Shown one piece after another: positions 9,405 through 54,108 of a stretch of DNA of 64,000 nucleotides. Source of the DNA: a virus. The notes beneath the pieces were generated by a model. It had not been told where the DNA came from. It made no database searches and worked only from the letters and a program-made list of their open reading frames with translations. The stretch spans positions 48,561-112,560 of IMG/VR virus record IMGVR_UViG_3300025121_000023; one strand, given 5' to 3'. Made by a program: the position numbers and the translations under genes. Numbering within the stretch: the stretch's first letter is position 1; each line of letters starts with the position of its first letter.

Positions 9405-9923
9405 ATGAAAAAATTTAAGGAATTTATTAACGAAAATATAAAAAGTATACTAAAAGGTAAATCTGATGAAGATGTTATTGAACAATTAAAAAAATTAGAT
9501 AATAATGAAAGAATTCAAAAAATAATTGAATTACAGTCATATTGGGAATTATTACCAAGAGATTTAAAAGGAGTTTGTATTTTTTTTGGAGATTTAATAT
9601 TAAATGGTGATGAAGGTCATAATAAATTAGAATTTTTACCACCCGATTTTATTGTTACTGGTGATTTAGATGTTAGTTATAATGAAATTAGATATTTACC
9701 AAAAAACTTGATAGTTAAGGGTGATTTGGATTGTACAGATAATCAATTAACTGAAATACCAAAAGATTTAATTGTTGGTGGTATTTTATATATAGAATAT
9801 AATTATATAAAGGAAATACCAGAAACTATAAATGCTAGTGCAATTATATGTAGTAGACAAGACTTAGTACCTAAAAAAAAGGTAAAAAAACCAAAAAATT
9901 TTACAGGAAAATTTATTAATTAA
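9405..9923 (+). CDS. Leucine-rich repeat protein with capsid-targeting-like leader
   Basis: MKKFKEFINE leader followed by 20-aa GDLxxxxNxLxxLPxxLIV repeats. Paralog of 39153 and 39656. Confidence 0.75.
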   Translation: MKKFKEFINENIKSILKGKSDEDVIEQLKKLDNNERIQKIIELQSYWELLPRDLKGVCIFFGDLILNGDEGHNKLEFLPPDFIVTGDLDVSYNEIRYLPKNLIVKGDLDCTDNQLTEIPKDLIVGGILYIEYNYIKEIPETINASAIICSRQDLVPKKKVKKPKNFTGKFIN

Positions 9924-9925
9924 TT

Positions 9926-10522
9926 ATGAAAAATTACAAACAATTCAACGAAAACAAATTGCCTAAAATAAAAAAAGGTATTAAAGAAATATTAAAACCA
10001 TTTAAAGAAAATGAAATTGATATATTTGATACATTTAATTTAGATAAACAAAATTTTAATATAAAAGATTATATAGAAAATCTGTATAATAATGCCGATT
10101 TTAATCATAAAATAGAAAAAAAAGGTTTAAAAAAAGGAAAACTTCAAGATACTAAATATAATGAAGTATTACTATATGATAGATATGTTCTTAGATTTTT
10201 CTTTATTTATAAAAAAGATGCAATCGAAATTGAAGAACCTAAATTTATTTTAGTTCAATATTATGATAAGAAAAAAAATATATTAAGTTCAATTAAATTA
10301 TATAAAAATAAAAACAATACCCAAGATTTCTATGAAGATTTAACTGATGCTACTATCGAAATTGAAAAAGGTGATGATAATTTTATTTATAAAACATCTA
10401 ATTCTGGAAATAATTGGGAATTAAAAAATCCAAAAGATGTCCAAGGTGATTTTAAAGACTCATTAGATAAAACAGAAATTAAAAAAATATTAAAAGACAA
10501 AAATACAAAAGTGAGTAAATGA
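9926..10522 (+). CDS. Hypothetical protein with CTS-like leader
   Basis: Begins MKNYKQFNE. Confidence 0.7.
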   Translation: MKNYKQFNENKLPKIKKGIKEILKPFKENEIDIFDTFNLDKQNFNIKDYIENLYNNADFNHKIEKKGLKKGKLQDTKYNEVLLYDRYVLRFFFIYKKDAIEIEEPKFILVQYYDKKKNILSSIKLYKNKNNTQDFYEDLTDATIEIEKGDDNFIYKTSNSGNNWELKNPKDVQGDFKDSLDKTEIKKILKDKNTKVSK

Positions 10523-10577
10523 AAAAAAAATTTAAATTCATTTTAATATAAATTAAAAAACAAAAAAAGATAAATAG

Positions 10578-11021
10578 ATGGAATCCAAAAATAATTATAA
10601 ATATATTGTTATAAATATACCTACAGTAAATTTTGAAAATCGTTTATATACAACAAATAAATTAGTTAAAATAATTCGAATGTTATATAAAAACAATATT
10701 CTAATATGGAATTTTAATGAAAATACTAATGTTGATAATTGGGTAAGACTTTCTTTAATTGATTTGGATGAAGATAGATATATTATAGATGAAATGAATA
10801 TAAAAAATACAGATGATATAGCATTTTTTGAAAAATATCCCGTTTATATATATATTAACTTATATATAAATGATTTGTGGTATGATTATGATTATGACTA
10901 TCAAAGGGAGGATGATCCACACGTTTATTCAAATGTAGATATAAGAGATTTTAAAAGTATAATAGAAACTGGTAAAATACCAATTAAACCCGATTATTCA
11001 CCAAGGAAATATAGGGTTTAA
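10578..11021 (+). CDS. Hypothetical protein
   Basis: Its C-terminus FKSIIETGKIPIKPDYSPRK resembles the internal FRGIIEYGEIIPDYRPRR of the 13731 protein. Confidence 0.7.
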   Translation: MESKNNYKYIVINIPTVNFENRLYTTNKLVKIIRMLYKNNILIWNFNENTNVDNWVRLSLIDLDEDRYIIDEMNIKNTDDIAFFEKYPVYIYINLYINDLWYDYDYDYQREDDPHVYSNVDIRDFKSIIETGKIPIKPDYSPRKYRV

Positions 11022-11029
11022 TTGTTAGT

Positions 11030-11906: not shown

Positions 11907-12743
11907 ATGAGTGTAAAAAGTTTTAAAAATTTTGTAAATGAAAATATTAAAGATCTACTAGTTGGTAAATCATCAGAAGATATTAAAAATCAACTTAAAG
12001 GTAAATCTTTTTCAGAAATATTGAATTTAACAAAGAAGTATAATATTTATTTTATGGATTTTTTTACAAAAAAAGAACTTAAAGATATTTTTAAAGATTG
12101 TTCATTTAAAGAAATTTATGATCAAATAAGATTTAATGGTGATATAGAAAATATATTTACAAGAGATGAAATAAAAGAATTATTAAAAAAAGATGTACTT
12201 AGTAGCACTACTACATATCTTCATAATTACGATTTAAAATTAAATAATTTATTTACAAAAGAAGAAGTAAGAGAATTATTAAAAAAAAATAAATGGTATG
12301 ATGTATTTAAATTTTTAAAAGATAATGATAAATCGTACAAAGAATATTTATCAAAAAATGATATAATTGAATTAGCTGAAAACCGTTTTGGCAAAAAAAT
12401 ACATAATATATTTGATTTAATCAATATTATGTTTTATAACGGAAATATAAATATATTTGACATATTCACAAAAGAAGAAATAAAAAAAGAGTTAGATAAA
12501 ATATATTTTTATTATCATAATGATATTATAAAAATGTATAAATTGCCGTTTGATTTAGTATATCCTACAAAAGAACAATTAATTGATTTAATACAAAGAT
12601 TTTATTATGAAGAAAAAAATATAAGTCGTAATCAAATTAACAATTATTTAAATCAATTTAATATTGATTTAGATAATCCAAAGTATTTAAATATATCTAA
12701 ATTAGAAAAAGATGTACAAAAAAATCGTAATGAAGTTAAATAA
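11907..12743 (+). CDS. Helical-repeat protein with CTS-like leader
   Basis: MSVKSFKNFVNE-NIKDLLVGKSSEDI leader and repeated FTKEE(I/V)KELL units. Confidence 0.7.
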   Translation: MSVKSFKNFVNENIKDLLVGKSSEDIKNQLKGKSFSEILNLTKKYNIYFMDFFTKKELKDIFKDCSFKEIYDQIRFNGDIENIFTRDEIKELLKKDVLSSTTTYLHNYDLKLNNLFTKEEVRELLKKNKWYDVFKFLKDNDKSYKEYLSKNDIIELAENRFGKKIHNIFDLINIMFYNGNINIFDIFTKEEIKKELDKIYFYYHNDIIKMYKLPFDLVYPTKEQLIDLIQRFYYEEKNISRNQINNYLNQFNIDLDNPKYLNISKLEKDVQKNRNEVK

Positions 12744-12828: not shown

Positions 12829-13689
12829 ATGAAAAGATTAAAAAAATTCAAACAATTTATAACAGAAGATGTAGATATTACAGCACAAGATTTAAAACAT
12901 CCAGTTGATGAACCTATACAACAAGGTATTCCAACATCTCAAATGCAAGTACAAGGTCAACCAATACAAAATCAACCACAAGTACAACCACAAATGCCTA
13001 TACAACCTAAAAAATTAACATTGGATAAATATCGTAATATGATAGATTATACATTGTTAAAGGATAATGTAAGTAAAGAATTATTACAAAATTTTATAGA
13101 AGAAGCAATTCGACAAAAATTTTATGCTATTTGTATATTACCTAAGTATGTGGCTGATGCTGAATTTATTATTGATGATAGAAATTTAAAAATAGTCACT
13201 GTTATAGATTATCCAAATGGAACAGCAACAGCAAACGAAAAATTAGTAGAAACTACTGAAGCATTAGCAGATGGTGCAACCGAAATTGATATGGTTATGG
13301 ATTTTAAAGCATTGAAAGATGCTTATTTAGATGAAAATGAAGAATCACAAGAATCTACATATCAAATATTACAAAAAGAAATAAAAACTGTCGGTGATGA
13401 ATGTCATAGAAACGGTGCCATATTAAAAGTTATTGTAGAAGCAGAATTATTAACATTAGAAGAATTAGCAAAAGCTTGTGAATTAGTTACCAATGGTGGT
13501 GCTGATTTTATAAAAACATCAACAGGAACTAATAATAAACCAGTAGAATTAGTTAAAGTAAAAGAAATGAGAAGATTATTACCTGATTATGTTAAAATTA
13601 AAATATCGGGTGGTGTAAGGACATTACAACAATGTGAAGATTTTTATCAATATATTGATAGAATAGGTACATCTATTATTTTAAAGTAG
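12829..13689 (+). CDS. deoC: Deoxyribose-phosphate aldolase with CTS-like leader and Q/P linker
   Basis: IDYTLL, GATEIDMV, LKVIVE, ADFIKTSTG (Schiff-base Lys), KISGGVR and RIGTS motifs. Confidence 0.92.
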   Translation: MKRLKKFKQFITEDVDITAQDLKHPVDEPIQQGIPTSQMQVQGQPIQNQPQVQPQMPIQPKKLTLDKYRNMIDYTLLKDNVSKELLQNFIEEAIRQKFYAICILPKYVADAEFIIDDRNLKIVTVIDYPNGTATANEKLVETTEALADGATEIDMVMDFKALKDAYLDENEESQESTYQILQKEIKTVGDECHRNGAILKVIVEAELLTLEELAKACELVTNGGADFIKTSTGTNNKPVELVKVKEMRRLLPDYVKIKISGGVRTLQQCEDFYQYIDRIGTSIILK

Positions 13690-16856: not shown

Positions 16857-17018
16857 ATGAAAGTAAAAACGAAAACGAAAGTAGAATTATCCATATCATT
16901 TGATGATGATTTATTAAAATATATAAAAGAAAATTATGTAAATAGATCTAAATTTATTGAATATTGTGTTATACAAGAATTATCTAAATTTGATAAATAT
17001 AAAAATAAATTATCATAA
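16857..17018 (+). CDS. Small ribbon-helix-helix protein, 53 aa
   Basis: Manual translation: MKVKTKTKVELSISFDDDLLKYIKENYVNRSKFIEYCVIQELSKFDKYKNKLS. TAATG overlap with the endonuclease gene. Confidence 0.7.
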   Translation: MKVKTKTKVELSISFDDDLLKYIKENYVNRSKFIEYCVIQELSKFDKYKNKLS

Positions 17019-18121
17019 TGAAAAGAAAAACTACCGATGAATTTATATTAGATGCACAAAAAGTTCACAAAGATAAATATAATTATTCATTAGTTGATTA
17101 TATAAATACTAAAACTAATGTTAAAATTATATGTAATATACACGGAGAATTTGAACAATTACCAGCCAATCATTTGATAGGTAAGGGTTGTTATAAATGT
17201 GGAAGAATAACAACAACAAAGAAAAAATCTTTATCTACTGACGAATTTATAATACGTTCCAAAAAAATTCACAATAATAAATATGATTATAATTTAGTAA
17301 AATATATAAATAATAAAACCAAAGTTAAAATTATATGTCCTGAACACGGATTATTTGAACAAATACCTAATTATCATATAAACAATGGAAGTGGTTGCCC
17401 TAAATGTAAATTTGAAAAAATAGCAAAGTTATATTCCAGAAGTAATAATGATTTTTTATTACAGGCAAAAAAAATTCACGGGAATATATATGATTATTCG
17501 TTAGTAAATTATAAAAATGATATAACAAAAGTAAAATTAATATGCTTAATACACGGAGAATTCGAACAAACACCCAATAAACATTTAAAGGGTAGAGGTT
17601 GTCAAAAATGTGGAGGAACAAGTCTAAAAACAACAGAACAATTTATTATAGATGCTAAAAAAATACATAATAAAAAGTATGATTATAAATTAGTTAATTA
17701 TAAAGGGAATCGAATTAAAATTAAAATTATTTGTAATGAACACGGGATATTTAATATAATTCCAGTTAAACATTTAATAGGTAGAGGTTGTCCTAAATGT
17801 AGAGAAACAATAGGAGAAACCAAAGTTAGAACATTATTAGAAAATAATAATATAAGTTATGAAATACAAAAGACATTTGATGGATGTATATATGAAAAAT
17901 CTTTAAAATTTGATTTTTATTTACCTGATAAAAATATAGCAATTGAGTTTGATGGGATACAACATTTTGAACCCATTGAATGGTTTGGGGGAGAAAAAAG
18001 ATTTAAAATTCAACAAAAAATAGATTTAATTAAAACTAATTATTGTAAGGATAATAATATTAAATTAATAAGAATATCGTATTTGGAAAATGTTGATATT
18101 AAACTTAATGCTTTCTTTTAA
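17018..18121 (+). CDS. Zn-finger-array PD-(D/E)xK/Vsr-like endonuclease (family B)
   Basis: Four H..KYDY...KVKIIC..HG.F.Q.P..H..G.GC..C repeats followed by FDFYLP...IEFDGIQHF. Confidence 0.75.
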   Translation: MKRKTTDEFILDAQKVHKDKYNYSLVDYINTKTNVKIICNIHGEFEQLPANHLIGKGCYKCGRITTTKKKSLSTDEFIIRSKKIHNNKYDYNLVKYINNKTKVKIICPEHGLFEQIPNYHINNGSGCPKCKFEKIAKLYSRSNNDFLLQAKKIHGNIYDYSLVNYKNDITKVKLICLIHGEFEQTPNKHLKGRGCQKCGGTSLKTTEQFIIDAKKIHNKKYDYKLVNYKGNRIKIKIICNEHGIFNIIPVKHLIGRGCPKCRETIGETKVRTLLENNNISYEIQKTFDGCIYEKSLKFDFYLPDKNIAIEFDGIQHFEPIEWFGGEKRFKIQQKIDLIKTNYCKDNNIKLIRISYLENVDIKLNAFF

Positions 18122-27274: not shown

Positions 27275-29107
27275 ATGAAACTCATAAATAAATTTAATGA
27301 TTTTGTAAATTTGATATTAGAAAACGCAAATTCACAAAAAATGCCTTTTGTTTTAAGTCAAAGGTTATATAAATTTTTGCAGCAAATTAAACACCCAATA
27401 TCAGATGAATTATTAGATGCATATTATTATGAAAATGAAACACCAGTTACTTTAATAGATTATGACGAAGATAAATTAGGATACTTTAAAGTTATAAAAT
27501 CTTCTAATTTATTTAATTATATGTCTAAAACACATTATAAATATAATAAAGACGCATTAAATAATAGTGTAGATTTACAAAATGATTTAAAAAAATACTT
27601 TCTTAGAACTAAATATGAAGATATGTATTGGACACAAAATAAAGAAAGTATGAAAATAGGTAAATTAATTAATACAATATTTCCTAATAAGTTTAAAGCA
27701 AATGGTGTACATGGTAAAGATATTGAATCATTTATTAATATGTTTAAATCAAAATTAGTAGATAGATTCAAAAATATTAAAATTGTTGATGGTGATTTAC
27801 TTAAAAAATATTATTATGAAGAAAATTATTCAAATATAAATTCATCATCGCCTTTATATAATTCTTGTATGAGAACCAAAAGATGTCAATTGTATGTTAA
27901 TTTTTATGCTATAAATAATGTTAAATTATTAGTTTTAATGTCTGATAAAGACGATGAACAAGACAAAATTATAGCTAGAGCATTATTATGGCCAATTGTA
28001 AAAGTAACAAATCCAGTTGATGAAGAAATTATATTTAATAAAGAAATGACATTTATGGATAGAATTTATTTTACAAATGATTATGATATAGATACATTAA
28101 AAGAATATGCTAATAGAGAAGGTTGGTTACATAAAAAATTTCAAACTTCATCATATTCTAGTGATATTTATAATCCTGATACAAATGAATATAAAAACTT
28201 ACAATTATTTACATCTAATAATTTTAAAAATGCAATTAAATATCCCTATATGGATACAATGAAATGGTTTAATGAATCTAAAGGTTATTTAACTAATAGA
28301 AGAATATATGATAATGATAGTAATGTATTTTTCTTAGAATCGACAGATGGTAGCCATGAAATTATTAGTTCATCACATCGTGATAATGTAGAAAATGGAG
28401 ACGATTTATATTACTCGGAATTTTATGATGATCATATTGATATTAATAGTGATATATATGTTTGGTGTGAATTAGGTGAAGATTATAGAACATATGATGA
28501 TGCAGAAACAATAACAGATTATAATGGTTATAATGTGAGATATGCAACCGAAGAGTATGTTGAAAATAATATGGCATATTCTGAGGCGGAAAGAAGATAT
28601 ATTGATAATGATGATGTATTACATTTATCTTTTTATGATGACGTAGTTAGTAGAGATTATGCTCAAGAAGAAATATATTATAGTGAAATTGATGATGAAT
28701 ATTATTATGATAACGATTGTGTATATTCTGATTTTCATAATACTTATATATATTATGAAGATGCAGTAAGTGTATTATGTGATATTAACTTTAATCCTAA
28801 AGATATAGAAGATATTGGATATTATGAATATGATAACAGAAAAGTTAATGATGGATCATATGATATTGCAATTATAAATGGTATAGATATAGAGGTAGAT
28901 TCAGATATTTTAGAAGATCATTTTGTTAAAATAATTTATGATATAGATAATGAAAGTGGAATAGAATCATATAAATATGGTTTAGACGATGGTAAAGGAT
29001 ATTTTCGTTGGAACGGCAAATATTATGCGAATAAATTTAAAGATAAATTTACTGGACAATTAAGATTATGGGAAAATAAAATAAGAAGATTTAATGAAAA
29101 TAATTAA
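27275..29107 (+). CDS. Unknown protein (SCM/RALLW/MDRIY family) with acidic Tyr-rich C-terminal repeats and CTS-like leader
   Basis: Paralog of the 29094 and <1-870 proteins. Confidence 0.75.
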   Translation: MKLINKFNDFVNLILENANSQKMPFVLSQRLYKFLQQIKHPISDELLDAYYYENETPVTLIDYDEDKLGYFKVIKSSNLFNYMSKTHYKYNKDALNNSVDLQNDLKKYFLRTKYEDMYWTQNKESMKIGKLINTIFPNKFKANGVHGKDIESFINMFKSKLVDRFKNIKIVDGDLLKKYYYEENYSNINSSSPLYNSCMRTKRCQLYVNFYAINNVKLLVLMSDKDDEQDKIIARALLWPIVKVTNPVDEEIIFNKEMTFMDRIYFTNDYDIDTLKEYANREGWLHKKFQTSSYSSDIYNPDTNEYKNLQLFTSNNFKNAIKYPYMDTMKWFNESKGYLTNRRIYDNDSNVFFLESTDGSHEIISSSHRDNVENGDDLYYSEFYDDHIDINSDIYVWCELGEDYRTYDDAETITDYNGYNVRYATEEYVENNMAYSEAERRYIDNDDVLHLSFYDDVVSRDYAQEEIYYSEIDDEYYYDNDCVYSDFHNTYIYYEDAVSVLCDINFNPKDIEDIGYYEYDNRKVNDGSYDIAIINGIDIEVDSDILEDHFVKIIYDIDNESGIESYKYGLDDGKGYFRWNGKYYANKFKDKFTGQLRLWENKIRRFNENN

Positions 29108-30677
29108 AAATTATAATGAATATTTATTTGAATTATTATTTGAACAAATCGATAACGAATTACCTGTTAAAATAAGTGATAGATTGTTAAACATATTGAT
29201 AGAAATTAAACATCCTATTTCTACATATTTATCTAGTCTTAATTCAATGAATATTAATAAACCAATTACATTAATTGATTATGATGATGATAATTTAGAT
29301 AAATTTACATTAGCACAATCTGAAAAAATTTATGATTATATCAGAAAATTATTAGGTGATTATAAAAATAAAGAAACACTAAAACACCTTTTTATTTCAA
29401 ATTATAAAGATAAAGATTTTTGGGATAAAAACAGAACATCATATAAAATAGGAAAAGTTATAAATAGATTACAACCAGGTAGATTTTTACCAAACGGAAA
29501 ACCAGGTGAAGACATTGAATCGTTCATTAATGAAATAAAATCAGCAAGAACAAACATTTTCTCAAAATTTAAAATAGTAGAAGGTAATGAATTAAAAAAA
29601 TACTATAATCAAAACACATACGAATATGGTAAAAATTCAACTTTACATAACTCTTGTATGAGATATGATTATTGTTCTGATTATTTTAATTTTCTTATTA
29701 TAAATAATGTTAAGATGTTAATTTTAATGTCAGATAATAATAAAGATAAAATAAAAGGTAGAGCATTAATTTGGAAATTAAGTGAGTTAAATCATAAAGA
29801 TACTAATAGAATATTTATGGATAGAATTTATACAATAAATGATTATGATGTATATAAGTTTAAAAGTTATGCTAAAAAAGAAGGTTGGTTATATAAAGAT
29901 ATCCAAAATAATTCAACAAATCGGATTGTTGATCCGTTAGATAATACTATAAAGGAAAGATATATGAAAATTAATAATATAGAATATACGTTTCCATTTC
30001 CTTATATGGATTCATTTAAATATTATAATACAGATAAAGAATATTTATCAACTACGTTTGATGATGATTATGAATATGAATTAAATTCAACTGATGGTGG
30101 TTATATTGATAAAGAAGATAATGAATTCAGTTATTTTACAAACGAATGGGCATCTTTAAATTACGCAGAAGAACATTGGAATTATTCAGAAAAAGAAAAT
30201 ACTTGGATAAATAAAGAAGATAGTGTTTATGTTGATCATATACAAACATATGTTTCTAGATATTATGCATTAGACAATTATGCATATAATAAACACGATG
30301 ATAAATTTTATGATAGAGATTATTGTGAATATTCTGATACAAACTATAATTGGATTCCTAAAAAATATGCTATAGAAGTTTTTGATTATATTGATAGAGA
30401 AGATAATGGAATCGAATGGCGAGATATTAGAGATAAAGATTATATAAAATTGTTAAATAAAAATGGTAAAATAGAATATTATGATGAACATTTTAAAGAT
30501 GAATTTGATATAAAATATGATTTTAATAAAAAAATGGATTATTATGAAATGAAAAAGAGACTTAAAGTCTCTTTTTTTTATTTTTTAGATTTTTTAGGTT
30601 TTTCATCATTAAGAAGATTATCCATACTTACATCAGCAGACATACGATATACTTTTGTAGCTCTAGATATATTTTGA
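29094..30677 (+). CDS. Paralog of 27275; 3' end reads through a terminator-like hairpin
   Basis: NSCMR, GRALIWK, MDRIY and PYMDS motifs. The last ~33 codons are antisense to the VWA gene. Confidence 0.75.
   Translation: MKIIKNYNEYLFELLFEQIDNELPVKISDRLLNILIEIKHPISTYLSSLNSMNINKPITLIDYDDDNLDKFTLAQSEKIYDYIRKLLGDYKNKETLKHLFISNYKDKDFWDKNRTSYKIGKVINRLQPGRFLPNGKPGEDIESFINEIKSARTNIFSKFKIVEGNELKKYYNQNTYEYGKNSTLHNSCMRYDYCSDYFNFLIINNVKMLILMSDNNKDKIKGRALIWKLSELNHKDTNRIFMDRIYTINDYDVYKFKSYAKKEGWLYKDIQNNSTNRIVDPLDNTIKERYMKINNIEYTFPFPYMDSFKYYNTDKEYLSTTFDDDYEYELNSTDGGYIDKEDNEFSYFTNEWASLNYAEEHWNYSEKENTWINKEDSVYVDHIQTYVSRYYALDNYAYNKHDDKFYDRDYCEYSDTNYNWIPKKYAIEVFDYIDREDNGIEWRDIRDKDYIKLLNKNGKIEYYDEHFKDEFDIKYDFNKKMDYYEMKKRLKVSFFYFLDFLGFSSLRRLSILTSADIRYTFVALDIF
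30552..30579. terminator. Bidirectional terminator-like hairpin
   Basis: aaaaagagac-ttaaa-gtctctttttttt. Confidence 0.7.
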
Positions 30678-37917: not shown

Positions 37918-38331
37918 TTATTTACCAAAACCCATTTTCCTAAAATCTGGTTCAATTGTTGGTATAGGATGACCGTTTCTATCTAAATCACCTGGCATAC
38001 CATCTTGTAAATACGCACCACTTTCATGTGGGACATCATTTTCATCATAAGGTGGACGACACACAGTAGGATTATCTTCTTTTGATTCTAGAACATCTTC
38101 TTCCCAATCATAATCAAATTCAATTTCATATTTATTTAATATTGATTTTAATCTAGAAGCATCTAAGTCATCTGTTATAACAATTTTAAACGGTTCTTTG
38201 ACATCTATTGTATGTTTAGTTACTTTTTTACTAGTATCCCATGAACGTATAGCTCTACTATTTTCATCGCTAAATAGGTTTTCTATTCCTTCATTAACAA
38301 ATTTTTTAAAATTGGTTTTTAAATATTTCAT
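37918..38331 (-). CDS. Hypothetical protein with CTS-like leader
   Basis: Begins MKYLKTNFKKFVNE. Confidence 0.7.
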   Translation of the reverse strand: MKYLKTNFKKFVNEGIENLFSDENSRAIRSWDTSKKVTKHTIDVKEPFKIVITDDLDASRLKSILNKYEIEFDYDWEEDVLESKEDNPTVCRPPYDENDVPHESGAYLQDGMPGDLDRNGHPIPTIEPDFRKMGFGK

Positions 38332-38364
38332 GTTTTGTTTTTAATTTTTATTATATATTAAATA

Positions 38365-39156
38365 TTACAATGTATTTTTAAATATATACGCTACTAAATC
38401 ATTAGCAGCTTTTTGGTCTTTACCACCAATATGCCACATAATACTATCTGTTTTAATTTCATTAATAGGTTTATATTCTTTATAATCATAAATATATAAA
38501 AGATCACCATTTTCTGATATTACATTCCAATTAAAAATAGTTCTATAATCTTCTCCGTAATCTGGTTCGCCAAATAATTTTACTAAATCATCATATTGTG
38601 CTTCTACTTCACTAAGTTTCCAACCACTATCACTTATTTTAGTAGATGTAAAAATAACATCTGGATTTCCTGGCAAGTTTTTTAATATTTCTTCTTTTGA
38701 TTTAGGTTTTAGTATGTTTCTTATATTTTCGTTTAAAGTTCTATAATAAATATATGCTAATAAATTATTCTTATCTATAGGGTTTGTACCACCAATATGC
38801 CATTTAAATGATAACATATTTTTTAATTTTACTGCTAAATAACCTGATGTATCGTCATAAATACTAACTGTTCTTCCACTAGTAGTTTTAAGTGTCCATA
38901 TAAAATTATTACCAGCTCTTCTACTTTTTTTATTTGCCCATCTTCTTTCTGGTTCACCAAATAATTTTACTAAATCATCATAAGATGTTTCAATATAACC
39001 TAATAAAAATATTCCTGCTAGTCCTTTTAATCTAGTAGGAATGAATGATGCATTTGGATCACCTGTAGTTGATATTGCTTTAATCATTTCATCATTAGAT
39101 TTCGGTTGAAGTAAATCTTTTACACTTTCTTTATATTGTTTATATGTCTTTATCAA
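38365..39156 (-). CDS. Tandem two-domain protein with CTS-like leader
   Basis: Two copies of YDDLVKLFGEP...IYD...WHIGG, each preceded by E-(S/N)(V/I)xx(L/I)LxPKS. Confidence 0.75.
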   Translation of the reverse strand: MIKTYKQYKESVKDLLQPKSNDEMIKAISTTGDPNASFIPTRLKGLAGIFLLGYIETSYDDLVKLFGEPERRWANKKSRRAGNNFIWTLKTTSGRTVSIYDDTSGYLAVKLKNMLSFKWHIGGTNPIDKNNLLAYIYYRTLNENIRNILKPKSKEEILKNLPGNPDVIFTSTKISDSGWKLSEVEAQYDDLVKLFGEPDYGEDYRTIFNWNVISENGDLLYIYDYKEYKPINEIKTDSIMWHIGGKDQKAANDLVAYIFKNTL

Positions 39157-39659
39157 AATAAAAGTCCTCCTTTTACACCTTTTGGTTTTTTTGTATCTTT
39201 TGGTAACAGATTATCATGACAATATAAATCACCTTTAACAACTAAATTTTCTGGTAATTTTTTTAATTGATTATATCTACAATCTAAATAACCTTTAACA
39301 ATTAAATTATCAGGTAAACTTTTTAACCTATTAAAACTACAATTTAAATCACCTTCAACAACTAAATTTTCAGGTAAATTAGTTAATTTATTATCATAAC
39401 AATATAAATAACCTTCAACAGTTAAATTATCAGGTAAACTAGTTAATTGATTATTACTACAATTTAAATTTCCATAATAAGTACAAATACCTTTGTTATT
39501 TCTAGGTAGTAAATCGTAATCTAATTGATATTTAATTATTATATATTCAATTTTTTTATTATCAGATAATCCTTCTAATGCTTTAATCATTTCATCTTTA
39601 GATTTCGGCTGAAGTAAATCTTTTACTGACTCATTATATTGTTTATATGTTTTTATCAT
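39153..39659 (-). CDS. Leucine-rich repeat protein (five 20-aa repeats) with CTS-like leader
   Basis: GxLxCxxNxLxxLPxNLxV repeats with 60-nt periodicity. Confidence 0.8.
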   Translation of the reverse strand: MIKTYKQYNESVKDLLQPKSKDEMIKALEGLSDNKKIEYIIIKYQLDYDLLPRNNKGICTYYGNLNCSNNQLTSLPDNLTVEGYLYCYDNKLTNLPENLVVEGDLNCSFNRLKSLPDNLIVKGYLDCRYNQLKKLPENLVVKGDLYCHDNLLPKDTKKPKGVKGGLLF

Positions 39660-40219
39660 AATATAAAATCTCCTGTTACTCCTTTTGGTTTTTTAATATC
39701 TTTTGGCAATAGATTATCATAACAAATTAAATAACCATCAACAACTAAATTTTCAGGCAAACTAGTTAACTTATTATATCTACAATCTAAATCACCATTA
39801 ACAGTTAAATTTTTTGGTAAAATAGTTAATTCATTAAAACTACAATTTAAATAACCATTAACAATTAAATTATCAGGCAAACTAGTTAACTTATTATATC
39901 TACAATCTAAATCACCATTAACAACTAAATTTTCTGGTAAACTAGTTAATTTATTATCACTACAATTTAAATTACCATTAACAACTAAATTGTCAGGCAA
40001 ACTAGTTAATTCATAAATACTACAATTTAAATGACCATAATAAGTACAAATACCTTCGCTATTTCTAGGTAATAAAGAATAATCTAATTGATATTGAATT
40101 ATTATATATTCAATTTTTTTATTATCAGATAATCCTTCTAATGCTTTTTTTACATCTTCATTAGATTTCGGTTGAAGTAAATCTTTTACTGATTCGTTAT
40201 ATTGTTTAAAAGTTTTCAT
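39656..40219 (-). CDS. Leucine-rich repeat protein (six 20-aa repeats) with CTS-like leader
   Basis: Close paralog of 39153. Confidence 0.8.
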   Translation of the reverse strand: MKTFKQYNESVKDLLQPKSNEDVKKALEGLSDNKKIEYIIIQYQLDYSLLPRNSEGICTYYGHLNCSIYELTSLPDNLVVNGNLNCSDNKLTSLPENLVVNGDLDCRYNKLTSLPDNLIVNGYLNCSFNELTILPKNLTVNGDLDCRYNKLTSLPENLVVDGYLICYDNLLPKDIKKPKGVTGDFIL

Positions 40220-40730: not shown

Positions 40731-42116
40731 TTAATCTTTTGTTTTTATAAATTTTTGAAGTTCTCTTAACTTATTATAATCTGGTTTATCTTTATCTAAT
40801 TCGTCATTAATAATATTTTCAAGTTCTCCTTGACTCATATTAATATAACTTTTTTCTTTATTAACTTTTTCTTCTTTTGGTTCAATTGATTCTGGTCTTG
40901 GCAATCTCTGTGCTCGTTGTAATGGTTCTTCATAAATTTCTTCTTTGTATGTTTCGGTAGGTTCTTCTAATATTGCTAAAACATTTTCAACAATTTTATA
41001 TCTTCTCATTAATATATCAGATTGATCTATATCTCCACTTAATATTATCTTAATTAATTCAACAAAATCTTTATCTTTAAGCATAATTAATTCACCATAA
41101 ATAAATTCTTTAATTGCTATTCTACTTACTTCTAATGGAAATTTTCTTTCTAAATAACTATTAAAATAATCTCTTAAATCAGCAGCAATAAAAGGACCAT
41201 ATTTGATATCTTCTTGTTCATCTTCTAATGAATCAACAGCATTTAATAATTTTTTAGCCATTTTTTCGTTTTCTGGTATTGCATTAGCTGCCATTAATTC
41301 ATAAATTGCTTTAACTGTTTCGTGAATAAGCATAGGTAAATCTAGTACTCTTACTTTAATTACTGGTGTCATATCTTCTTGTTCTCCTTCACTTCGATCT
41401 TCACTTTGATCTTCGCCTTTATTACTTTTCTTATTTGATTTTTTCCAATCAATTTCACTCATATTCGCCATTTCTGGCATTTCTTCCATCATATCACTTA
41501 AATCTGGCTTATTTGGATCCCAGTCAAATTTTCTATTTATATTTAAAAATTCTGTATAGTCCTGTAATAATCTTGGATCTATTGCATCTACCTTATCTTT
41601 TGCAGCAAACATCATACTATGAACATTTTGTGCTTCACCTTGCATAATATTATTTAAAATTTTTCTTTTACTAATACTTTCCTCCGGCAATTCAAATGTA
41701 TTTTCTATATCAAAATCAGAATTATAATTAATTTCATTATCTTCATCATCTTCATCATTTTCATCATCATCATCTTTTTCTTCTTTTTCTGGTTTATTTA
41801 TAGCTTTTTGAACCATTTCCATTTTTTCTGAATCATCAGGTAAAACTATTTTAATATCAAGTTCAACACCATCTAATATAGATCCATAATGGTCTAATAT
41901 TATTTGTTTTCCGATTTCTGTTAATTCTTCAAGATGTCCTTGTTGTTTTATCATTATATCTTGTGTTAATCTCATAGCATTCATAAAATCATTACGTTGA
42001 GGACCACTACCAAACATTTTTATAGATTTTTCTTCTATATTTTTAAGATAATCTTCTGGAAGAGTATCTTTAATATTAGCTTCAAATAATTCATTAAACC
42101 TTTTTAATTTTTTCAT
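40731..42116 (-). CDS. Acidic hypothetical protein with CTS-like leader
   Basis: Begins MKKLKRFNELFE and contains LIHETVK. Confidence 0.75.
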   Translation of the reverse strand: MKKLKRFNELFEANIKDTLPEDYLKNIEEKSIKMFGSGPQRNDFMNAMRLTQDIMIKQQGHLEELTEIGKQIILDHYGSILDGVELDIKIVLPDDSEKMEMVQKAINKPEKEEKDDDDENDEDDEDNEINYNSDFDIENTFELPEESISKRKILNNIMQGEAQNVHSMMFAAKDKVDAIDPRLLQDYTEFLNINRKFDWDPNKPDLSDMMEEMPEMANMSEIDWKKSNKKSNKGEDQSEDRSEGEQEDMTPVIKVRVLDLPMLIHETVKAIYELMAANAIPENEKMAKKLLNAVDSLEDEQEDIKYGPFIAADLRDYFNSYLERKFPLEVSRIAIKEFIYGELIMLKDKDFVELIKIILSGDIDQSDILMRRYKIVENVLAILEEPTETYKEEIYEEPLQRAQRLPRPESIEPKEEKVNKEKSYINMSQGELENIINDELDKDKPDYNKLRELQKFIKTKD

Positions 42117-42117: not shown

Positions 42118-42378
42118 TTATTTAGAATATTTATTTTTTAAGAAATTTTCTATTTCTTTATCACCTTTAGATAATTCTAAAAACTTATTTGCAACTTCTT
42201 TAACAGTTGCTTTTGGTCTAGGATTTATTGAAGGTTTATCTCTTCTTATAGGTGAAGGTCTACCAGGTACTGTATTAGGTTTAACTCCTGGTTTAGTTAT
42301 TGGTTTTACTGTTGGTTCAGCTACATCTATTTCTACACCTTCTTGTAAGAAAATTTTAAACGATTTTATTTTTTTCAT
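42118..42378 (-). CDS. Small Pro-rich protein with CTS-like leader
   Basis: Begins MKKIKSFKIFLQE. Confidence 0.7.
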   Translation of the reverse strand: MKKIKSFKIFLQEGVEIDVAEPTVKPITKPGVKPNTVPGRPSPIRRDKPSINPRPKATVKEVANKFLELSKGDKEIENFLKNKYSK

Positions 42379-42724: not shown

Positions 42725-42799
42725 TTTATTTAAATCATTTTTGTTTATTTTTATATATTAAATTTTATATATAGAATAAATAAAAATTAATTAATTATT

Positions 42800-45640: not shown

Positions 45641-45777
45641 GCTTTTTTAATTTATTTTTTATATGTTCGTTGAATGAATTATGAATTTATAGTTCATTCA
45701 ATTATACCTTATATTTTAAAAATAATTAAAAGTTTAATTATGATTTTCAAAAATGTTTAGTTTTAAACAAAAAAAAA

Positions 45778-48201: not shown

Positions 48202-48209
48202 TTATTTAA

Positions 48210-48584
48210 TCATTTTGTTTTATATTTGCTTGTATCCTTTAATTTTTGATTTTTATCATCAAGTTCGTGGACATCGGTATCTAAATTTTCTATATTTTGT
48301 TGCAATTTTTCAATTGTTTGTTCTAATTCATCTTTCTTTTGTAATAATAATTCTTTATTATCAGTAGTATAAGTATCTATTTCCATTTTATTGATTTTTT
48401 CAATTAAATCTTCTAATTCTTGTTTTTTCAAATCAATATTATCTCTTAGTTTTTGTATTTCTGCTGATGCATCTTCTATTTTAGTTTCGTCATACCCATC
48501 GATATTATCATCACCATCAATCATGTTTTGCATAATTTCTTCATATGATTCACAAAATAATTTATATGTTTTTAAAGTTTTCAT
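48210..48584 (-). CDS. Coiled-coil protein with CTS-like leader
   Basis: Begins MKTLKTYKLFCE. Confidence 0.7.
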   Translation of the reverse strand: MKTLKTYKLFCESYEEIMQNMIDGDDNIDGYDETKIEDASAEIQKLRDNIDLKKQELEDLIEKINKMEIDTYTTDNKELLLQKKDELEQTIEKLQQNIENLDTDVHELDDKNQKLKDTSKYKTK

Positions 48585-48599
48585 TTTTTATCTTTTGTT

Positions 48600-49556
48600 T
48601 TAATTATTTTTACCTTTAATTTTTTTATTTTTATTAGTTTGTTTATTAATGATAGGTTGTTTAGCATTTTGTTGAATTTGACTTTGCATTTTTTTATTTT
48701 CTTCTTGTTTCTTATTTTCTTGTTCTTTTTGTATTTGTTCAAAACCTTTTTTCATTTGTACTTGTTTTTTAGCATCATATTTATCATCATTTTTAGGATT
48801 TTTAAGATTTTTATTTGCTTGTTCTTGATCTTTTTTTAATTGTTCTTTTTTTGATATTTGTGCTTGTGCTTGTTTAACTTCATCTTTTGTAACTACATGT
48901 TTTTGAGTTGTACCAGATATTTGTGGTTGTGTTGTATTAGATGATGGAATTTGTTTAACATTTTGTCTATGTTCTACACCTTTAATAAATTCTCTAATAA
49001 TATATTTATTATCTTTTTTATAATTTAATTCACCTTTTAACCATTCTTTATCTTCATTATTACTATATAAATCAAATATTTTTTTAAAATCAAAAATTAA
49101 ATACTGACCAGTTATTCCTTCACTATCTTTTTCAAAATCTTTTACATATTTTGAATATAATTTTGATTCATGTCTATTTAATTTGCCTAAAATTTGATTA
49201 GAAACTATATTATATTTATAAATAAATTTAGGATAATCTTTTGTTTTATCTTGTACTGGTTCTGAACTATGAACTTGGATTTTATAAATTATATATTTAT
49301 CTTTATAACTTTCCCCATTATGATCAGTTACATCCCAATTTCCATTATATTTAAAAGTAGTATAATAAAATTCTTTTTCTACTATACTTTTGCCATCTAT
49401 AGTTTTACCTATAAAATTTATCATATTTTTTTTAATAGATAATTTAACACTATTAATAATTCCTATAATATTATTTGTTATTTTTTTTATAATATCTTTA
49501 TCTTTTGCTACTGCAACTTCTTCATTAATAAAATTTTTATAATTCTTATACGACAT
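48600..49556 (-). CDS. Hypothetical protein with CTS-like leader
   Basis: Begins MSYKNYKNFINE and has a Q/K-rich tail. Confidence 0.7.
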   Translation of the reverse strand: MSYKNYKNFINEEVAVAKDKDIIKKITNNIIGIINSVKLSIKKNMINFIGKTIDGKSIVEKEFYYTTFKYNGNWDVTDHNGESYKDKYIIYKIQVHSSEPVQDKTKDYPKFIYKYNIVSNQILGKLNRHESKLYSKYVKDFEKDSEGITGQYLIFDFKKIFDLYSNNEDKEWLKGELNYKKDNKYIIREFIKGVEHRQNVKQIPSSNTTQPQISGTTQKHVVTKDEVKQAQAQISKKEQLKKDQEQANKNLKNPKNDDKYDAKKQVQMKKGFEQIQKEQENKKQEENKKMQSQIQQNAKQPIINKQTNKNKKIKGKNN

Positions 49557-49557
49557 T

Positions 49558-51711
49558 TTATTTATTTATTTTTTCATTGATTAATATTCTTTTCAAATTA
49601 TGGATATTATCAATAAATTCTGGATTAGTTGAAAATTTAAGTTCTGTCATATCTGATGTTATTCCATACTTTTCGTTTAATGTATCTAATATTGGTAATG
49701 GTCCATTTACTAATAATTTTTTAATAAAAATATCTACTGGATTTTTAGCATTTTTAGTTGATGCATCTAAAACAACCTTATTTGTTGTATCTAATCCAAA
49801 TCCATATAATTTATTTAAATTTTCTACCTTAAAATTTTTAATATTATATACTGATGTTCCTTTAGCTGTATACAAATACATTAAAATAATATTATTAGGT
49901 TTATAAGTTTCATAACCATCTTCACGTATTAAATGTTTTTGTGATGTTGCTACAATGTAAGTTGTTTGAAAATTAAAATCACCATTACCAAAATTTTTAA
50001 CAGTATCTTTAGGAACTAAACTTTTAACTAATGTATTATATTTAATATATTCTGTTATTTTAGTTATATCTTTTTCTGCTGCTAATTTTTCTAAATCAAC
50101 AGTTCCTAATAATCTATACACATAATGATTTTTACCTTCGATAACTATTTTATCTTGAACATAAATAAAATCACCATCTATTAATCTAAGTATACCACAT
50201 TTATCTTTATCACTAAATTTAGTTCTTGTTAATCCTAATGCTTTATTCTGTGATAATGATGCTTCAATTTTCATATTTTTAGATTTATCTACAATACTAC
50301 CTTTTTTATTGTTTTCTTCATCTAATTTTTGAAGTTGATCTGTATCTAATTTTTTCTTTAATACTCTTGGATCAATTTGATCTACAATCATAAATCTAGA
50401 AAATTTACCTTTTGAATCCTCTACCATTTTATCCCAAGTATTTTTTAACTTTAATCTAGCAGAAGTATCTGCTTTACCATAAATTCTTTCTGCTGCTAAT
50501 TGTATTTTTATAATAGATGATTTATTTTCTATTACATAATTTGTTAACTTTTCTTTTTCTGTTTTATTTTCAAATAATTTTGATAATCTTACATCATCAT
50601 ATTTAATATTTTTAAGTCCAATAAACCTAGATTCAAAACTAGTTAATTCATCACCTAATTTACGATCAACATTAAATCCTGTATTAATTCCTCTAAATTC
50701 TTCTGTTAATAAACTTTCATCAAATTTAGATATATTTGTATCATCATCTTTTGGATTTATTCTTTTGAGTATTATTTTTTTTCCTTTTGTAACATCTTCG
50801 ATAAGATCTTTCATATTTATTAATAAATTAACATTTGCTTGATATTTATTTAAATCATATTCCATTTCTTTTTTCTTACTATCACTTATTTTATTATCTT
50901 TTAATAATTCATTTATTTCATCAATGCCACCTTTATTAATTATTTGAATGGCTCTATTTATACTTTGTATTTCTTTTTTTAAATCATCAGCATTATCTAT
51001 ACCGTTTTCAATATCTGCTAATTGTTGTTTTATTTTATTATAGTACGTTTTTAAATCATCATCAGGTTCAACTTCTGTTTGAATAGTTACTTCATTATTT
51101 GTTTTTTTATTATCTATTGTTTTTTCTTTTTCTTTTGGTATTTCACCACTAGTATTACTATTATTATCAGCACTATTATTACCAGTACTACTAGTAACTG
51201 ATGTCTGTATATCAAATATTACTTGTATAATACCATTTTTAACTACAAATCCAGTACTATCTTTTTCATTGTTATAAGTTCCATCACTTACTACTTTACC
51301 CTCTTTATTAATAACTTTTGAACCTTTAACATAATTTGTTATAAGAGATTTATTTTCATTTACAAATTTAACAACATCCAGAATATTTATAATATTTCCT
51401 TCAACATCTTTTATTTTTGTAACATTATAAGATTCGTCCGGATCTATCATACTTATTCCGTGTTTTTTACAATATCTAACTAAATTAGCTAAGTATTCTC
51501 TTTGTAATGAATTTTTATATAATAATAATACACCTTCATTAACTTTTCTTTTCATAAAAGTAAATATATTAATAATGGCACTACCTACTAATGTATTTTC
51601 TGCACCTGCAAAATTTCCTTTAACATTTACAAATGGATCGTTGTTATCACCAACATCTTCTGTTATTTGTCTATATTCAACAAAATCATTATATTTATTT
51701 AAAATTTTCAT
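49558..51711 (-). CDS. Large hypothetical protein with CTS-like leader
   Basis: Begins MKILNKYNDFVE; 717 aa. Confidence 0.75.
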   Translation of the reverse strand: MKILNKYNDFVEYRQITEDVGDNNDPFVNVKGNFAGAENTLVGSAIINIFTFMKRKVNEGVLLLYKNSLQREYLANLVRYCKKHGISMIDPDESYNVTKIKDVEGNIINILDVVKFVNENKSLITNYVKGSKVINKEGKVVSDGTYNNEKDSTGFVVKNGIIQVIFDIQTSVTSSTGNNSADNNSNTSGEIPKEKEKTIDNKKTNNEVTIQTEVEPDDDLKTYYNKIKQQLADIENGIDNADDLKKEIQSINRAIQIINKGGIDEINELLKDNKISDSKKKEMEYDLNKYQANVNLLINMKDLIEDVTKGKKIILKRINPKDDDTNISKFDESLLTEEFRGINTGFNVDRKLGDELTSFESRFIGLKNIKYDDVRLSKLFENKTEKEKLTNYVIENKSSIIKIQLAAERIYGKADTSARLKLKNTWDKMVEDSKGKFSRFMIVDQIDPRVLKKKLDTDQLQKLDEENNKKGSIVDKSKNMKIEASLSQNKALGLTRTKFSDKDKCGILRLIDGDFIYVQDKIVIEGKNHYVYRLLGTVDLEKLAAEKDITKITEYIKYNTLVKSLVPKDTVKNFGNGDFNFQTTYIVATSQKHLIREDGYETYKPNNIILMYLYTAKGTSVYNIKNFKVENLNKLYGFGLDTTNKVVLDASTKNAKNPVDIFIKKLLVNGPLPILDTLNEKYGITSDMTELKFSTNPEFIDNIHNLKRILINEKINK

Positions 51712-51787
51712 ATTAATTACTTGATATTTTTGTATAACTATATATTATTTTTTCAAACTACAATAATTATGTATTCTTTAATTTTTA

Positions 51788-52954
51788 TCATAAATTTTTA
51801 TCAATAAAATATCTTTCGAATCTTACCCCTTTGTATATATATTTTCTTCCAAATATAGTAAAATAATCATCTGTAAATATTGGTCTTTCTACATGATTAA
51901 TACTATCGAATATTACAACACCTCTATAAAAAATTTTAAACGGTTCACCATCACTAATATATGTTTGATAAAAATCTTTTATTTTAGGCGATTTAAATGT
52001 TTTTACTGGTATATTATCTTTTGGATTAACTTTTGTATTATGTTGATCTGTTCCACGTGGAACAATTTCAATATCATCTATTTTAGATTCTTCTTCTATA
52101 ATTATATTTTCTATTTCATTTGAAACTTCAATAGTCTTTTCAACTTCAACTATTTTATCTATATACACAATCTTTTCAACTTCTTTTGGAACTTCAACTA
52201 TCTTTTCAACTTCAACTATTTTATCTATATACACAATCTTTTCAACTTCAACTATTTTTTCTATTTCTTTATCTACATATACAATCTTTTCAACTTCAAC
52301 TATTTTATCTACATATACAATCTTTTCAACTTCTTTTGGAACTTCAACTATCTTTTCAACTTCAACTATCTTTTCAACTTCAACAATTTTTTCTATTTCT
52401 TTATCTACATATATAATCTTTTCAACTTCAACTATTTTTTCTATTTCTTTATCTACATATATAATCTTTTCAACTTCTTTTGGAATTTCAACAATTTTAT
52501 GTATTGGGTTTTCTATAATTTCATCTATTTTTGGTTCTACTTTTAAATATTCCATCATATTATCTGTATATTCATTAGATGATTTATTTACTACATCTAT
52601 TAACATTTGATTAATTAAATCTTGATTAATATTATTAGGTTTTGGTTCTATTTCAACTTTAAATACATTTATTTCTTCTTTAACAATATTTGCTATTTCT
52701 TCTAAATCTTTTTTATCTTTTTGATTTTCGGTTTCTTCTATTTTTTTATAAAGTTCTTCTAACTTATTATTTAATTTATTAATATCCCCTTTTAATTCAT
52801 TTTTAATTTCATTTTTAATCTTAGATTTATTTATTAAGGGTTTAGGTGTATCTATAGGCTTATCTTCCTTTATTTTTTCGGGTTTAGTTTTTTTAATTTG
52901 CATTTCTTCTTTATCCCAGAATTCATTATATTTTTTATTTGTAATTTTAGCCAT
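51788..52954 (-). CDS. Low-complexity EKIVEV/EKIVYVD repeat protein
   Basis: About 20 short V/I/E/K repeats at roughly 52130-52500; contains parS copy 2. Confidence 0.75.
   Translation of the reverse strand: MAKITNKKYNEFWDKEEMQIKKTKPEKIKEDKPIDTPKPLINKSKIKNEIKNELKGDINKLNNKLEELYKKIEETENQKDKKDLEEIANIVKEEINVFKVEIEPKPNNINQDLINQMLIDVVNKSSNEYTDNMMEYLKVEPKIDEIIENPIHKIVEIPKEVEKIIYVDKEIEKIVEVEKIIYVDKEIEKIVEVEKIVEVEKIVEVPKEVEKIVYVDKIVEVEKIVYVDKEIEKIVEVEKIVYIDKIVEVEKIVEVPKEVEKIVYIDKIVEVEKTIEVSNEIENIIIEEESKIDDIEIVPRGTDQHNTKVNPKDNIPVKTFKSPKIKDFYQTYISDGEPFKIFYRGVVIFDSINHVERPIFTDDYFTIFGRKYIYKGVRFERYFIDKNL
52049..52064. promoter_or_regulatory. parS-consensus palindrome (copy 2)
   Basis: TGTTCCACGTGGAACA. 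Confidence 0.75.
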
Positions 52955-53042
52955 ATTTTATAAATTATTCTGTCGTTTTTTTCTTAGACATTTTTGCTTT
53001 TTATTTTTAATATATACCATATATATAAAAATAAGAAGAGCT

Positions 53043-53816
53043 ATGAGTAAATTGATCCGTTATAACCAATATAATTTTTTAAAAGAAAATTTTCCTATGC
53101 AATTAATTAAGGAAAGCACGGAATTCGCTGACATGCAGCTTGGTCAAGCAACTAACCCATTAGGTCCTGGGTTTGGATTTGCTACTGATCCAACTATGAG
53201 CATATACTCAGATGATTCATCACCCTATATAGATAATTATTCAAGAATGAGTCAAATGGTATCGGATTTAGGTAGAGTTATGAAAGATATACATACAGCA
53301 TTAAAAGGTGCAGGAACATCAAAATATGATTATTTTCTTGAAGATATAGATGAATATAAATCATTAAAAATATTAAGAATATTTATTAATACAGAATTAA
53401 AATTAGATATATATGTATCGTTTATTTTTATGGATGATGAGTTCTTTGGTGTATTTAGAAGTTTCAATGGAATAAATAAACCAAAATTTGATACAGATTT
53501 ATTAACTGATAAAAGATTTAATTATTTTGATAAAGAATATTATATCAAATTAAATAATTATTTTTATAAAATTATCTATAATTGGTTTATACCAGAAATA
53601 GGCAATTATAAAGTATTAAGTGATGATTTTAAAGTTAAAAATTCAATAGGTGATGATATTATAATTAAAAAGAATACAACAATTTATTTAAAAGGATATA
53701 ATACTGATCCTAATAATGATCCATATTTAATAATTAGATATAAAGATGAAATATATAAAATAATTAAAAATAATTATTATTACTTTAAATACTGGTGTCA
53801 AAAATTAAAAAATTAA
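53043..53816 (+). CDS. Hypothetical protein with CTS-like leader
   Basis: Begins MSKLIRYNQYNFLKE. Confidence 0.7.
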   Translation: MSKLIRYNQYNFLKENFPMQLIKESTEFADMQLGQATNPLGPGFGFATDPTMSIYSDDSSPYIDNYSRMSQMVSDLGRVMKDIHTALKGAGTSKYDYFLEDIDEYKSLKILRIFINTELKLDIYVSFIFMDDEFFGVFRSFNGINKPKFDTDLLTDKRFNYFDKEYYIKLNNYFYKIIYNWFIPEIGNYKVLSDDFKVKNSIGDDIIIKKNTTIYLKGYNTDPNNDPYLIIRYKDEIYKIIKNNYYYFKYWCQKLKN

Positions 53817-53832
53817 TAAATAATATAATTAT

Positions 53833-54108
53833 ATGAAAGGTTATAACAATTATATAAATGAAAAAAAGAAAACAAAAAATATAGAAACACTATCTAAATT
53901 AAAAGATTATATTATAATAAAAGATGATATAGGAGAATTCTATTTTGTAAATAATATTACTAAAACAACTTGTGGAGAAAAAAATAAAATGAATAAAAAT
54001 TTTAAAGATTTTAAAACAGATGAAGACGGAAGAATATTAGCAGAATGTATCAATTGTAAAACAAAAGGATTATTATTAGATCATATAGATGAAATCATTT
54101 TCAAATAA
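53833..54108 (+). CDS. Small hypothetical protein
   Basis: Begins MKGYNNYINE and contains CxxC. Confidence 0.6.
   Translation: MKGYNNYINEKKKTKNIETLSKLKDYIIIKDDIGEFYFVNNITKTTCGEKNKMNKNFKDFKTDEDGRILAECINCKTKGLLLDHIDEIIFK

Follow-up and report, generated by a model that had tools for sequence, protein, structure and literature searches.

How does it come about that, on one stretch of viral DNA, proteins with little else in common begin with the same ten or so residues? The question is raised by a sequence of 64,000 nucleotides (the whole stretch analysed, hereafter the window), the last 64 kb of the 112,560-bp viral contig IMGVR_UViG_3300025121_000023 of the IMG/VR collection, in which a short leader with the consensus M-(x)-K-x-[FY]-x-x-[FY]-[ILV/FY]-x-E recurs at the start of an aldolase, of leucine-rich repeat (LRR) proteins and of many other gene products. 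A preliminary description of this DNA had likened the leader to the N-terminus of the phage T4 internal proteins IPII and IPIII, and had proposed that it loads its carriers into the phage head for injection with the DNA. The motif itself, its enrichment, its conservation in relatives, its modularity, its link to one class of promoter-like box and the presence of a matching type of head protease in relatives are direct observations. Taking these together, we put at about 0.65 the probability that the leader is a T4-type capsid-targeting sequence (CTS), greatly expanded in a megaphage lineage.

A leader shared by unrelated proteins

All 18 N-termini named in the preliminary description are present in the window, and three to four further tagged open reading frames (ORFs) lie upstream of it on the same contig, so that some 21 tagged genes occur on 112 kb. 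Comparison with shuffled and internal sequence, which had been proposed as the check on the motif, came out clearly in its favour. Of the 153 ORFs counted contig-wide, 11 open with a match to the strict expression K-x-[FY]-x-x-[FY]-x(1-2)-E, a number that rises to 12 with the TTG start, against an expectation of 0.39 +/- 0.62 and a maximum of 3 when residues 2-22 of each ORF were shuffled (2000 shuffles), and the per-position rate of the expression at N-termini is 26 times the internal rate. For a stricter canonical class, [FYW]xx[FYW][ILVMFC]xE, 8 matches were observed on the contig and 0.45 expected.

The carriers had been described as 18 unrelated proteins. That many of them are unrelated holds; the number does not, as BLAST with the first 16 residues removed leaves about 14 independent families in the window, and groups only two sets of tagged proteins: family A (870, 27275, 29094 and one copy upstream of the window) and family B (9405, 39153, 39656). 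These two paralogous families comprise seven tagged genes and the contig has a GC content of 23%, both of which would favour the view that the motif is a by-product of recent paralogy or of a composition rich in Lys, Phe, Tyr and Asn; against this stand the shuffles, just given, and at least nine independent families that match the strict expression. The tagged genes of the window are as follows.

1..870 (-): family A paralogue, N-terminus at 870, gene running off the start of the window, 525 residues on the contig; leader MKIIKYFDDYRIDKILE
9405..9923 (+): family B LRR protein; leader MKKFKEFINE, then the extended NIKSILKGKSDED module
9926..10522 (+): tagged protein with no assigned function; leader MKNYKQFNE; the orthologue in phage LR756501 is tagged too (MRIKGYNKFVKE)
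11907..12743 (+): tagged protein with no assigned function; leader MSVKSFKNFVNE and extended module
12829..13689 (+): deoxyribose-phosphate aldolase (DeoC); leader MKRLKKFKQFITE, disordered Gln/Pro-rich linker (about residues 13-60), TIM barrel
27275..29107 (+): family A paralogue, of a virus-only family; leader MKLINKFNDFVNLILE
29094..30677 (+): family A paralogue; leader MKIIKNYNEYLFE
37918..38331 (-): 137-residue tagged protein; leader MKYLKTNFKKFVNE
38365..39156 (-): 263-residue tagged protein with a TTG start; leader (M)IKTYKQYKE and extended module
39153..39659 (-): family B LRR protein; leader MIKTYKQYNE; 60-bp (20-residue) repeat, 4.2 copies
39656..40219 (-): family B LRR protein; leader MKTFKQYNE; 60-bp repeat, 5.3 copies
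40731..42116 (-): 461-residue tagged protein; leader MKKLKRFNELFE, aromatic spacing off by one
42118..42378 (-): small basic tagged protein, 86 residues, mature isoelectric point (pI) 9.9, the most similar to a T4 internal protein; leader MKKIKSFKIFLQE
48210..48584 (-): 124-residue coiled-coil-like tagged protein; leader MKTLKTYKLFCE
48600..49556 (-): 318-residue tagged protein; leader MSYKNYKNFINE
49558..51711 (-): 717-residue tagged protein; leader MKILNKYNDFVE
53043..53816 (+): 257-residue tagged protein; leader MSKLIRYNQYNFLKE
53833..54108 (+): 91-residue tagged protein; leader MKGYNNYINE

The leader of the TTG-started gene at 38365-39156 lines up position by position with the one on the neighbouring ATG-started gene. 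As had been noted for replication genes and endonucleases, the DNA polymerase and the homing endonucleases lack the leader, and so do two virion structural proteins (61295, 62759). The latter, an open-ended ORF of the structural region (62759-64000, +), has the canonical leader motif in the interior of the protein, as ...SYEEFINES... at about residue 363, which may be a protease site.

When 19 curated leaders, of 9-17 residues from Met1 to the Glu, are aligned on that Glu (P1), all 19 have I, L, V, F or Y as the third residue counted back from the predicted cut (P3), and a pair of aromatics at i and i+3 is present in 18 (the exception is 40731), with a Lys usually two residues ahead of the first aromatic. 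The CTS of T4 is MKTYQEFIAE (10.1101/2021.01.19.427310), in which mutagenesis with amber suppressors assigned residues 4 and 7 to targeting and residues 8 and 10 to processing (PMC9026906). The mapped positions, Tyr4, Phe7, Ile8 and Glu10, are the four conserved in the leaders of the contig, so the likeness to IPII and IPIII extends to the level of functional positions, and both T4 ipII and ipIII are picked up when M-x(0-2)-K-x-[FY]-x-x-[FY]-x-x-E is searched for at the DNA level. Two other readings of the leader were rejected. The longest hydrophobic run in any leader is four residues, and for lack of a hydrophobic core a secretion signal is discounted; internal matches to the motif are scattered at background rate, as is not expected of a polyprotein.

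Right after the predicted cut site, five or six otherwise different proteins share a further block of conserved sequence, E-[NSA]-[IV]-K-[DS]-[IL]-L-x-[GP]-K-S-x-[ED]-[DE], at approximate window positions 9435-9500, 11943-12010, 39060-39125, 39560-39630 and 40125-40190. The block is also found in the IMG/VR loci L090 and L148 and in the aldolase fusions P0023 and P0026, and in this sub-group the modular unit may be of some 30 residues.

The leader in megaphages and in environmental phages

The nearest relative of the contig is LR756501, a 735-kb uncultured phage of 32% GC, which we take to be one of the huge-phage genomes published in 2020. A piece of DNA polymerase (window 36013-37527) has 56% identity to its polymerase, with lower similarity to those of LR756502, LR745206, LR756504, LR756500 and the Lak megaphages; 52 of the 153 ORFs of the contig have homologues in LR756501, and the window from 43891 to 57575 is syntenic with its 14-38 kb region. 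On the strength of this identity, gene sharing and synteny, the contig is best regarded as a fragment of a megaphage of the LR756501 lineage (CheckV completeness about 23%). A search for related loci with a virion structural protein of the window returned one distant locus only.

In LR756501, 54 N-termini belong to the canonical class where 2.9 would be expected, and 99 to the three length classes combined where the expectation is about 18; because of this excess, about 80 of its roughly 1000 ORFs can be estimated to be tagged, with leaders such as MIKTFDEFINE and MVKRYKQFINE. Relatives were scanned at the DNA level with a pattern allowing a flexible prefix, the reversed pattern serving as control, which gave 33 matches versus 4 in LR756501, 19 versus 7 in LR756502 and 8 versus 1 in LR756500; a stricter pattern, with the Lys fixed at residue 2, found nothing in LR756501. 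The same type of search found essentially no in-frame leader in Lak-A1, and ordinary T4-like phages (T4, KVP40, P-SSM2, HTVC008M, S-RIM32) contain 0-3 matches. A cultured phage, the 218-kb Chryseobacterium phage MA9V-2, has four clean leaders of the form MK[NT]FxxF[IV]NE.

Orthologues of 9926, 12829, 49558, 53043, family A and family B retain the leader at an identity of 26-51% elsewhere in the protein. The LR756501 orthologue (27867-29933) of the 717-residue protein has a variant leader, ...FEEFKKILE, and that of 53043 has (L)ITKFNNYLKE located 5' of its first ATG, for which reason it probably uses a non-ATG start. Beyond these genomes, a scan of IMG/VR for M-K-x-[FY]-x-x-F-I-N-E found at least 120 loci; among the matches listed, 115 of 129 start ORFs of at least 50 residues, on contigs of 21-48% GC and with varied codons. 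The leader is thus, by these comparisons, widespread and conserved at the protein level, its persistence over such a range of GC and codon choice arguing for selection on the protein. The occurrence of the leader in a genome of 32% GC and on contigs of up to 48% GC, and the ratio of 33 to 4 over the reversed pattern, join the shuffles in effectively refuting an origin in composition or paralogy, which we regard as barely credible.

Modular tag, head protease and promoter-like boxes

The preliminary description had counted enzymes and LRR proteins among the carriers, and both are borne out. The product of 12829-13689 is a DeoC aldolase (PF01791, E 3.9e-14; 1395 homologues) with invariant D154, K200 and K258 in the alignment, which we take to correspond to the catalytic Asp and two Lys of the E. 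coli enzyme. In its AlphaFold2 (AF2) model, residues 7-12 form a short helix, the disordered linker that extends to about residue 60 has a predicted local distance difference test score (pLDDT) of 42-63, and the barrel stands at pLDDT >90. Among DeoC homologues, the best 120 include at least 59 in which the leader stands on an N-terminal extension; named cellular DeoC enzymes, of 210-231 residues, begin at the conserved core, with neither leader nor linker. The tag is therefore a modular add-on to an enzyme of cellular type. Tblastn with a tagged aldolase against cultured phages returned only LR756501 and likely host contamination.

Family B has 20-residue tandem repeats of the LxxLxxNxL type, visible in the alignment and as 60-bp repeats in the DNA; the AF2 model of 39656 (pLDDT 84) matches the LRR domains of IpaH, SspH1 and YopM in Foldseek at a probability of 0.98-1.0 with a low TM-score (0.26-0.46). 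Family A falls into virus-only unnamed clusters in the ESM Atlas. For the 717-residue protein (49558) the ESM Atlas gave nothing usable and tblastn against the phage collection no match, and PHROGs and Pfam assigned no function to most of the tagged proteins. Tagged proteins of LR756501 include a PPK2 polyphosphate kinase (152222-153433; E 1e-76), with an N-terminal extension of 165 residues, and a nucleotidyltransferase-like protein (457823-459454).

If the leader is a CTS, a protease that removes it would be expected, as the gp21 prohead protease of T4 does with the CTS of IPII and IPIII. On the contig, PF03420 and tblastn with the protease, portal and capsid proteins of LR756501 found nothing convincing; a 27-residue tblastn match at E 0.001 (window 33797-33877) was set aside, being without PHROGs support. 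The contig is about 23% complete, and the protease partner is therefore deduced from relatives. In LR756501 the portal, head-maturation protease and major capsid protein genes are consecutive, and a second protease-like paralogue is also present. The head protease matches phrog_207 at E 5e-27 and PF03420 weakly; phrog_207 itself matches T4 gene 21 at 2.8e-79. A phrog_207 protease was found in every relative tested (LR756501, LR756502, LR756500, Lak-A1 and MA9V-2), and among large IMG/VR contigs bearing the leader in 6 of 10, including all 4 that are at least 90% complete. The gp21 relatives of T4, phiKZ, 201phi2-1 and SPN3US cleave after a Glu that follows a short motif (PMC9026906).

The positions of two tagged ORFs of MA9V-2 speak for capsid targeting. 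One adjoins denV, as do ipII and ipIII in T4. Another, of 82 residues, lies between the portal and protease genes, an interval that we take to be the position of T4 genes 67 and 68, and would also fit a different role for the leader, namely that of a signal for the prohead core and its protease, most tagged proteins being assembly accessories that are later degraded or expelled like T4 gp22, gp67 and gp68, with at most a few retained. The core proteins of T4 are indeed cut by gp21 and then leave the head (PMC5694885), and the very large number of tagged species, some of them metabolic enzymes, could be more easily accommodated in this way. The 10-residue T4 sequence is, however, sufficient for both packaging and retention of foreign proteins (PMC9026906); a single cleavage-type motif per protein is evident, internal matches being at background level; and folded enzymes and LRR domains are unlike scaffold. 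A core signal of this kind is, in our judgement, unlikely, if the most serious of the competing explanations.

The tagged genes may also share a mode of expression, as is suggested by two kinds of promoter-like box. Box 1, T[TA]ATATATA, lies about 15-35 nt 5' of the ATG; box 2 is of the TAnnTTTG type (TTATATCTTTGTA), presumably the Bacteroidota housekeeping -7 box. The copies of box 1 at tagged genes of the window are these.

9372..9380 (+): T[TA]ATATATA box heading the 9405/9926 unit
Starts at 11891, 12795, 27238 and 53008 (+): further T[TA]ATATATA boxes
42752..42760 (-): T[TA]ATATATA box heading the unit from 42724 to 38365, with five tagged genes
38352..38360 and 51739..51747 (-): further T[TA]ATATATA boxes

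Eighteen of the 21 tagged genes belong to units headed by T[TA]ATATATA and none to units with TAnnTTTG only, the corresponding numbers for other genes being 45 and 68 (Fisher p = 4e-7 for the comparison with the tagged split). The same box stands 5' of the portal, protease and capsid genes and of a large structural gene of LR756501, where related 8-mers are enriched about fourfold 5' of tagged genes, and we infer from this distribution that T[TA]ATATATA may be a late promoter. In the window it precedes structural, tagged and homing-endonuclease genes (e.g. 9372, 27238, 42752, 51739, 58960, 61267), and the TAnnTTTG-type box precedes other genes (e.g. 3600-6700, 11850, 21330).

Other genes of the window, too, occur in more than one copy.

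3922-4710, 25594-27240, 31231-32148, 34426-36021 and 56028-57569: a homing-endonuclease-like family
17018-18121, 22647-23552 and 23595-24683: a second homing-endonuclease-like, multi-copy family
54110-56026 (-) and 58991-60886 (+): untagged paralogues of about 635 residues flanking the tagged cluster, which match phrog_20458 and a 'kinase' PHROG

The homing-endonuclease-like genes are scattered through the window and some adjoin the DNA polymerase piece, pointing to genes that have been split or invaded.

Proposed packaging into the head and its alternatives

How could a peptide of this kind act? By analogy with T4, the two aromatics, three residues apart on a short helix, would bind the freshly synthesized protein to the core scaffold of the assembling prohead; once the shell has closed, a protease of the gp21 family would cut after the Glu of the hydrophobic-x-Glu motif, freeing the mature protein inside the head, and the latter would then enter the next host cell alongside the DNA. 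As a modular tag the leader has come to stand on widely different proteins, among them the LRR binders, the DeoC aldolase, several orphans and the virus-only family of four members. That these proteins dock, are cut, stay in the head and are injected is what we infer, and they are probably virion components that reach the host together with the genome.

The resemblance to the T4 system lies in an N-terminal element of about 10 residues with aromatics at 4 and 7, an aliphatic P3 and Glu at P1, in its use as a modular tag on unrelated proteins, and in the presence of a gp21-family protease in the relatives of the contig. The two differ in scale and in the nature of the carriers. T4 has three canonical carriers, all small basic proteins, whereas there are about 21 on the 112 kb of the contig and about 80 on the 735 kb of LR756501; those of the contig are of up to 717 residues, may have an acidic or a basic character, and comprise LRR proteins and enzymes among others, while their leaders range over 9-17 residues, with an extra conserved block of about 20 residues after the Glu in one sub-group. 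The head and ejection propeptides of phiKZ, 201phi2-1 and SPN3US, which are cut at S/A-x-E by the gp21 homologues gp175/gp245, likewise belong to giant phages in which internal head proteins are numerous, paralogous families occur and the cut follows a Glu, but they are mostly long (often >100 residues), have no short common N-terminal tag and carry a small (S/A/G) rather than a hydrophobic P3. In phage P1 an N-terminal packaging signal of 30 residues is sufficient to send the large protein DarB into the capsid for delivery; its sequence is unrelated, it is a single system and it is not known to be connected with a protease of the gp21 type.

Several observations sit uneasily with a packaged cargo. 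The cargo would be very large, some 14% of the ORFs of the contig and some 8% of those of LR756501, and would take in DeoC and PPK2, metabolic enzymes for which a use within the capsid is not apparent. The mature parts, of pI 4.4-9.9, are not uniformly basic, unlike the T4 internal proteins. The 112.5-kb contig, at its present completeness, has no protease, portal, capsid or scaffold gene, and Lak-A1 has a gp21-family protease yet no leader. No published virion proteomics was found for any relative, the MA9V-2 paper reporting no virion mass spectrometry. Finally, the 54-residue hypothetical protein gp61.1 of T4 (NC_000866 18966-19130), whose gene adjoins the primase gene, begins MKTFKEFIKE, and to our knowledge it has not been reported from virions; because gp61.1 has such a CTS-like N-terminus, the motif by itself may not guarantee packaging.

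The case of gp61.1 would be more readily understood if the leader had a role outside the capsid, for example as the peptide by which a modifying enzyme, perhaps a radical S-adenosylmethionine (radical-SAM) maturase, recognizes its substrate, as a signal for another compartment or as an aid to translation or folding, and a radical-SAM/SPASM-like ORF does occur on the contig, outside the window. This ORF, however, is 1.5-3.5 kb from a different tagged array (MTEHYPYRFKTE...) and has no homologue in LR756501 at E <= 1e-5, although LR756501 has about 80 leaders. Conservation at the amino-acid level over 21-48% GC speaks against an effect on the mRNA, and the coincidence of the conserved positions with the mapped T4 determinants, together with the sharing of a promoter-like box with head genes, counts against a role outside the capsid, so that we consider one improbable, and rather more so than a core signal.

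The ORF and its neighbouring array merit description in their own right. They lie at contig positions 35461-36675 (-) and 38169-40126 (-), 8.4-13.1 kb before the window. The ORF matches PF04055 at E 5.8e-7, with a weak match of PapB type, and the array consists of five tandem ORFs of about 85-97 residues, each starting MTEHYPYRFKTE(A/T)EFI(K/E)EFG. The two may represent a maturase with tagged small-protein clients, a tag system distinct from the capsid-type leader.

To return to capsid targeting, a review of the T4 system considers that T4-like phages may load varied proteins by means of the tag (PMC9026906), and in the literature searched no publication connects capsid targeting with megaphages or cyanophages. 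A more far-reaching proposal, which we advance tentatively and at appreciably less than even chances, is that in Mahaphage-type megaphages the T4-type peptide is a general sorting code that loads about a tenth of the proteome (some 80-100 species) into the head as a starter proteome for the next cell, and that this code is widespread in environmental T4-related phages. Should this be true, the starter proteome would include an aldolase, a polyphosphate kinase, a nucleotidyltransferase and LRR binders and, since the code would be widespread, injected cargo would be predictable from sequence alone.

If the tag acts as it does in T4, the proteins that huge uncultured phages carry in the head and inject could be listed from their genomes. 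Because injected proteins are the first to act in a newly infected cell, those listed would be prime candidates for anti-defence and take-over functions. The tag could also bring tools for protein delivery to the phages of Bacteroidota, and the scale of the cargo, far above the three internal proteins of T4, would alter the picture of what a megaphage virion contains.

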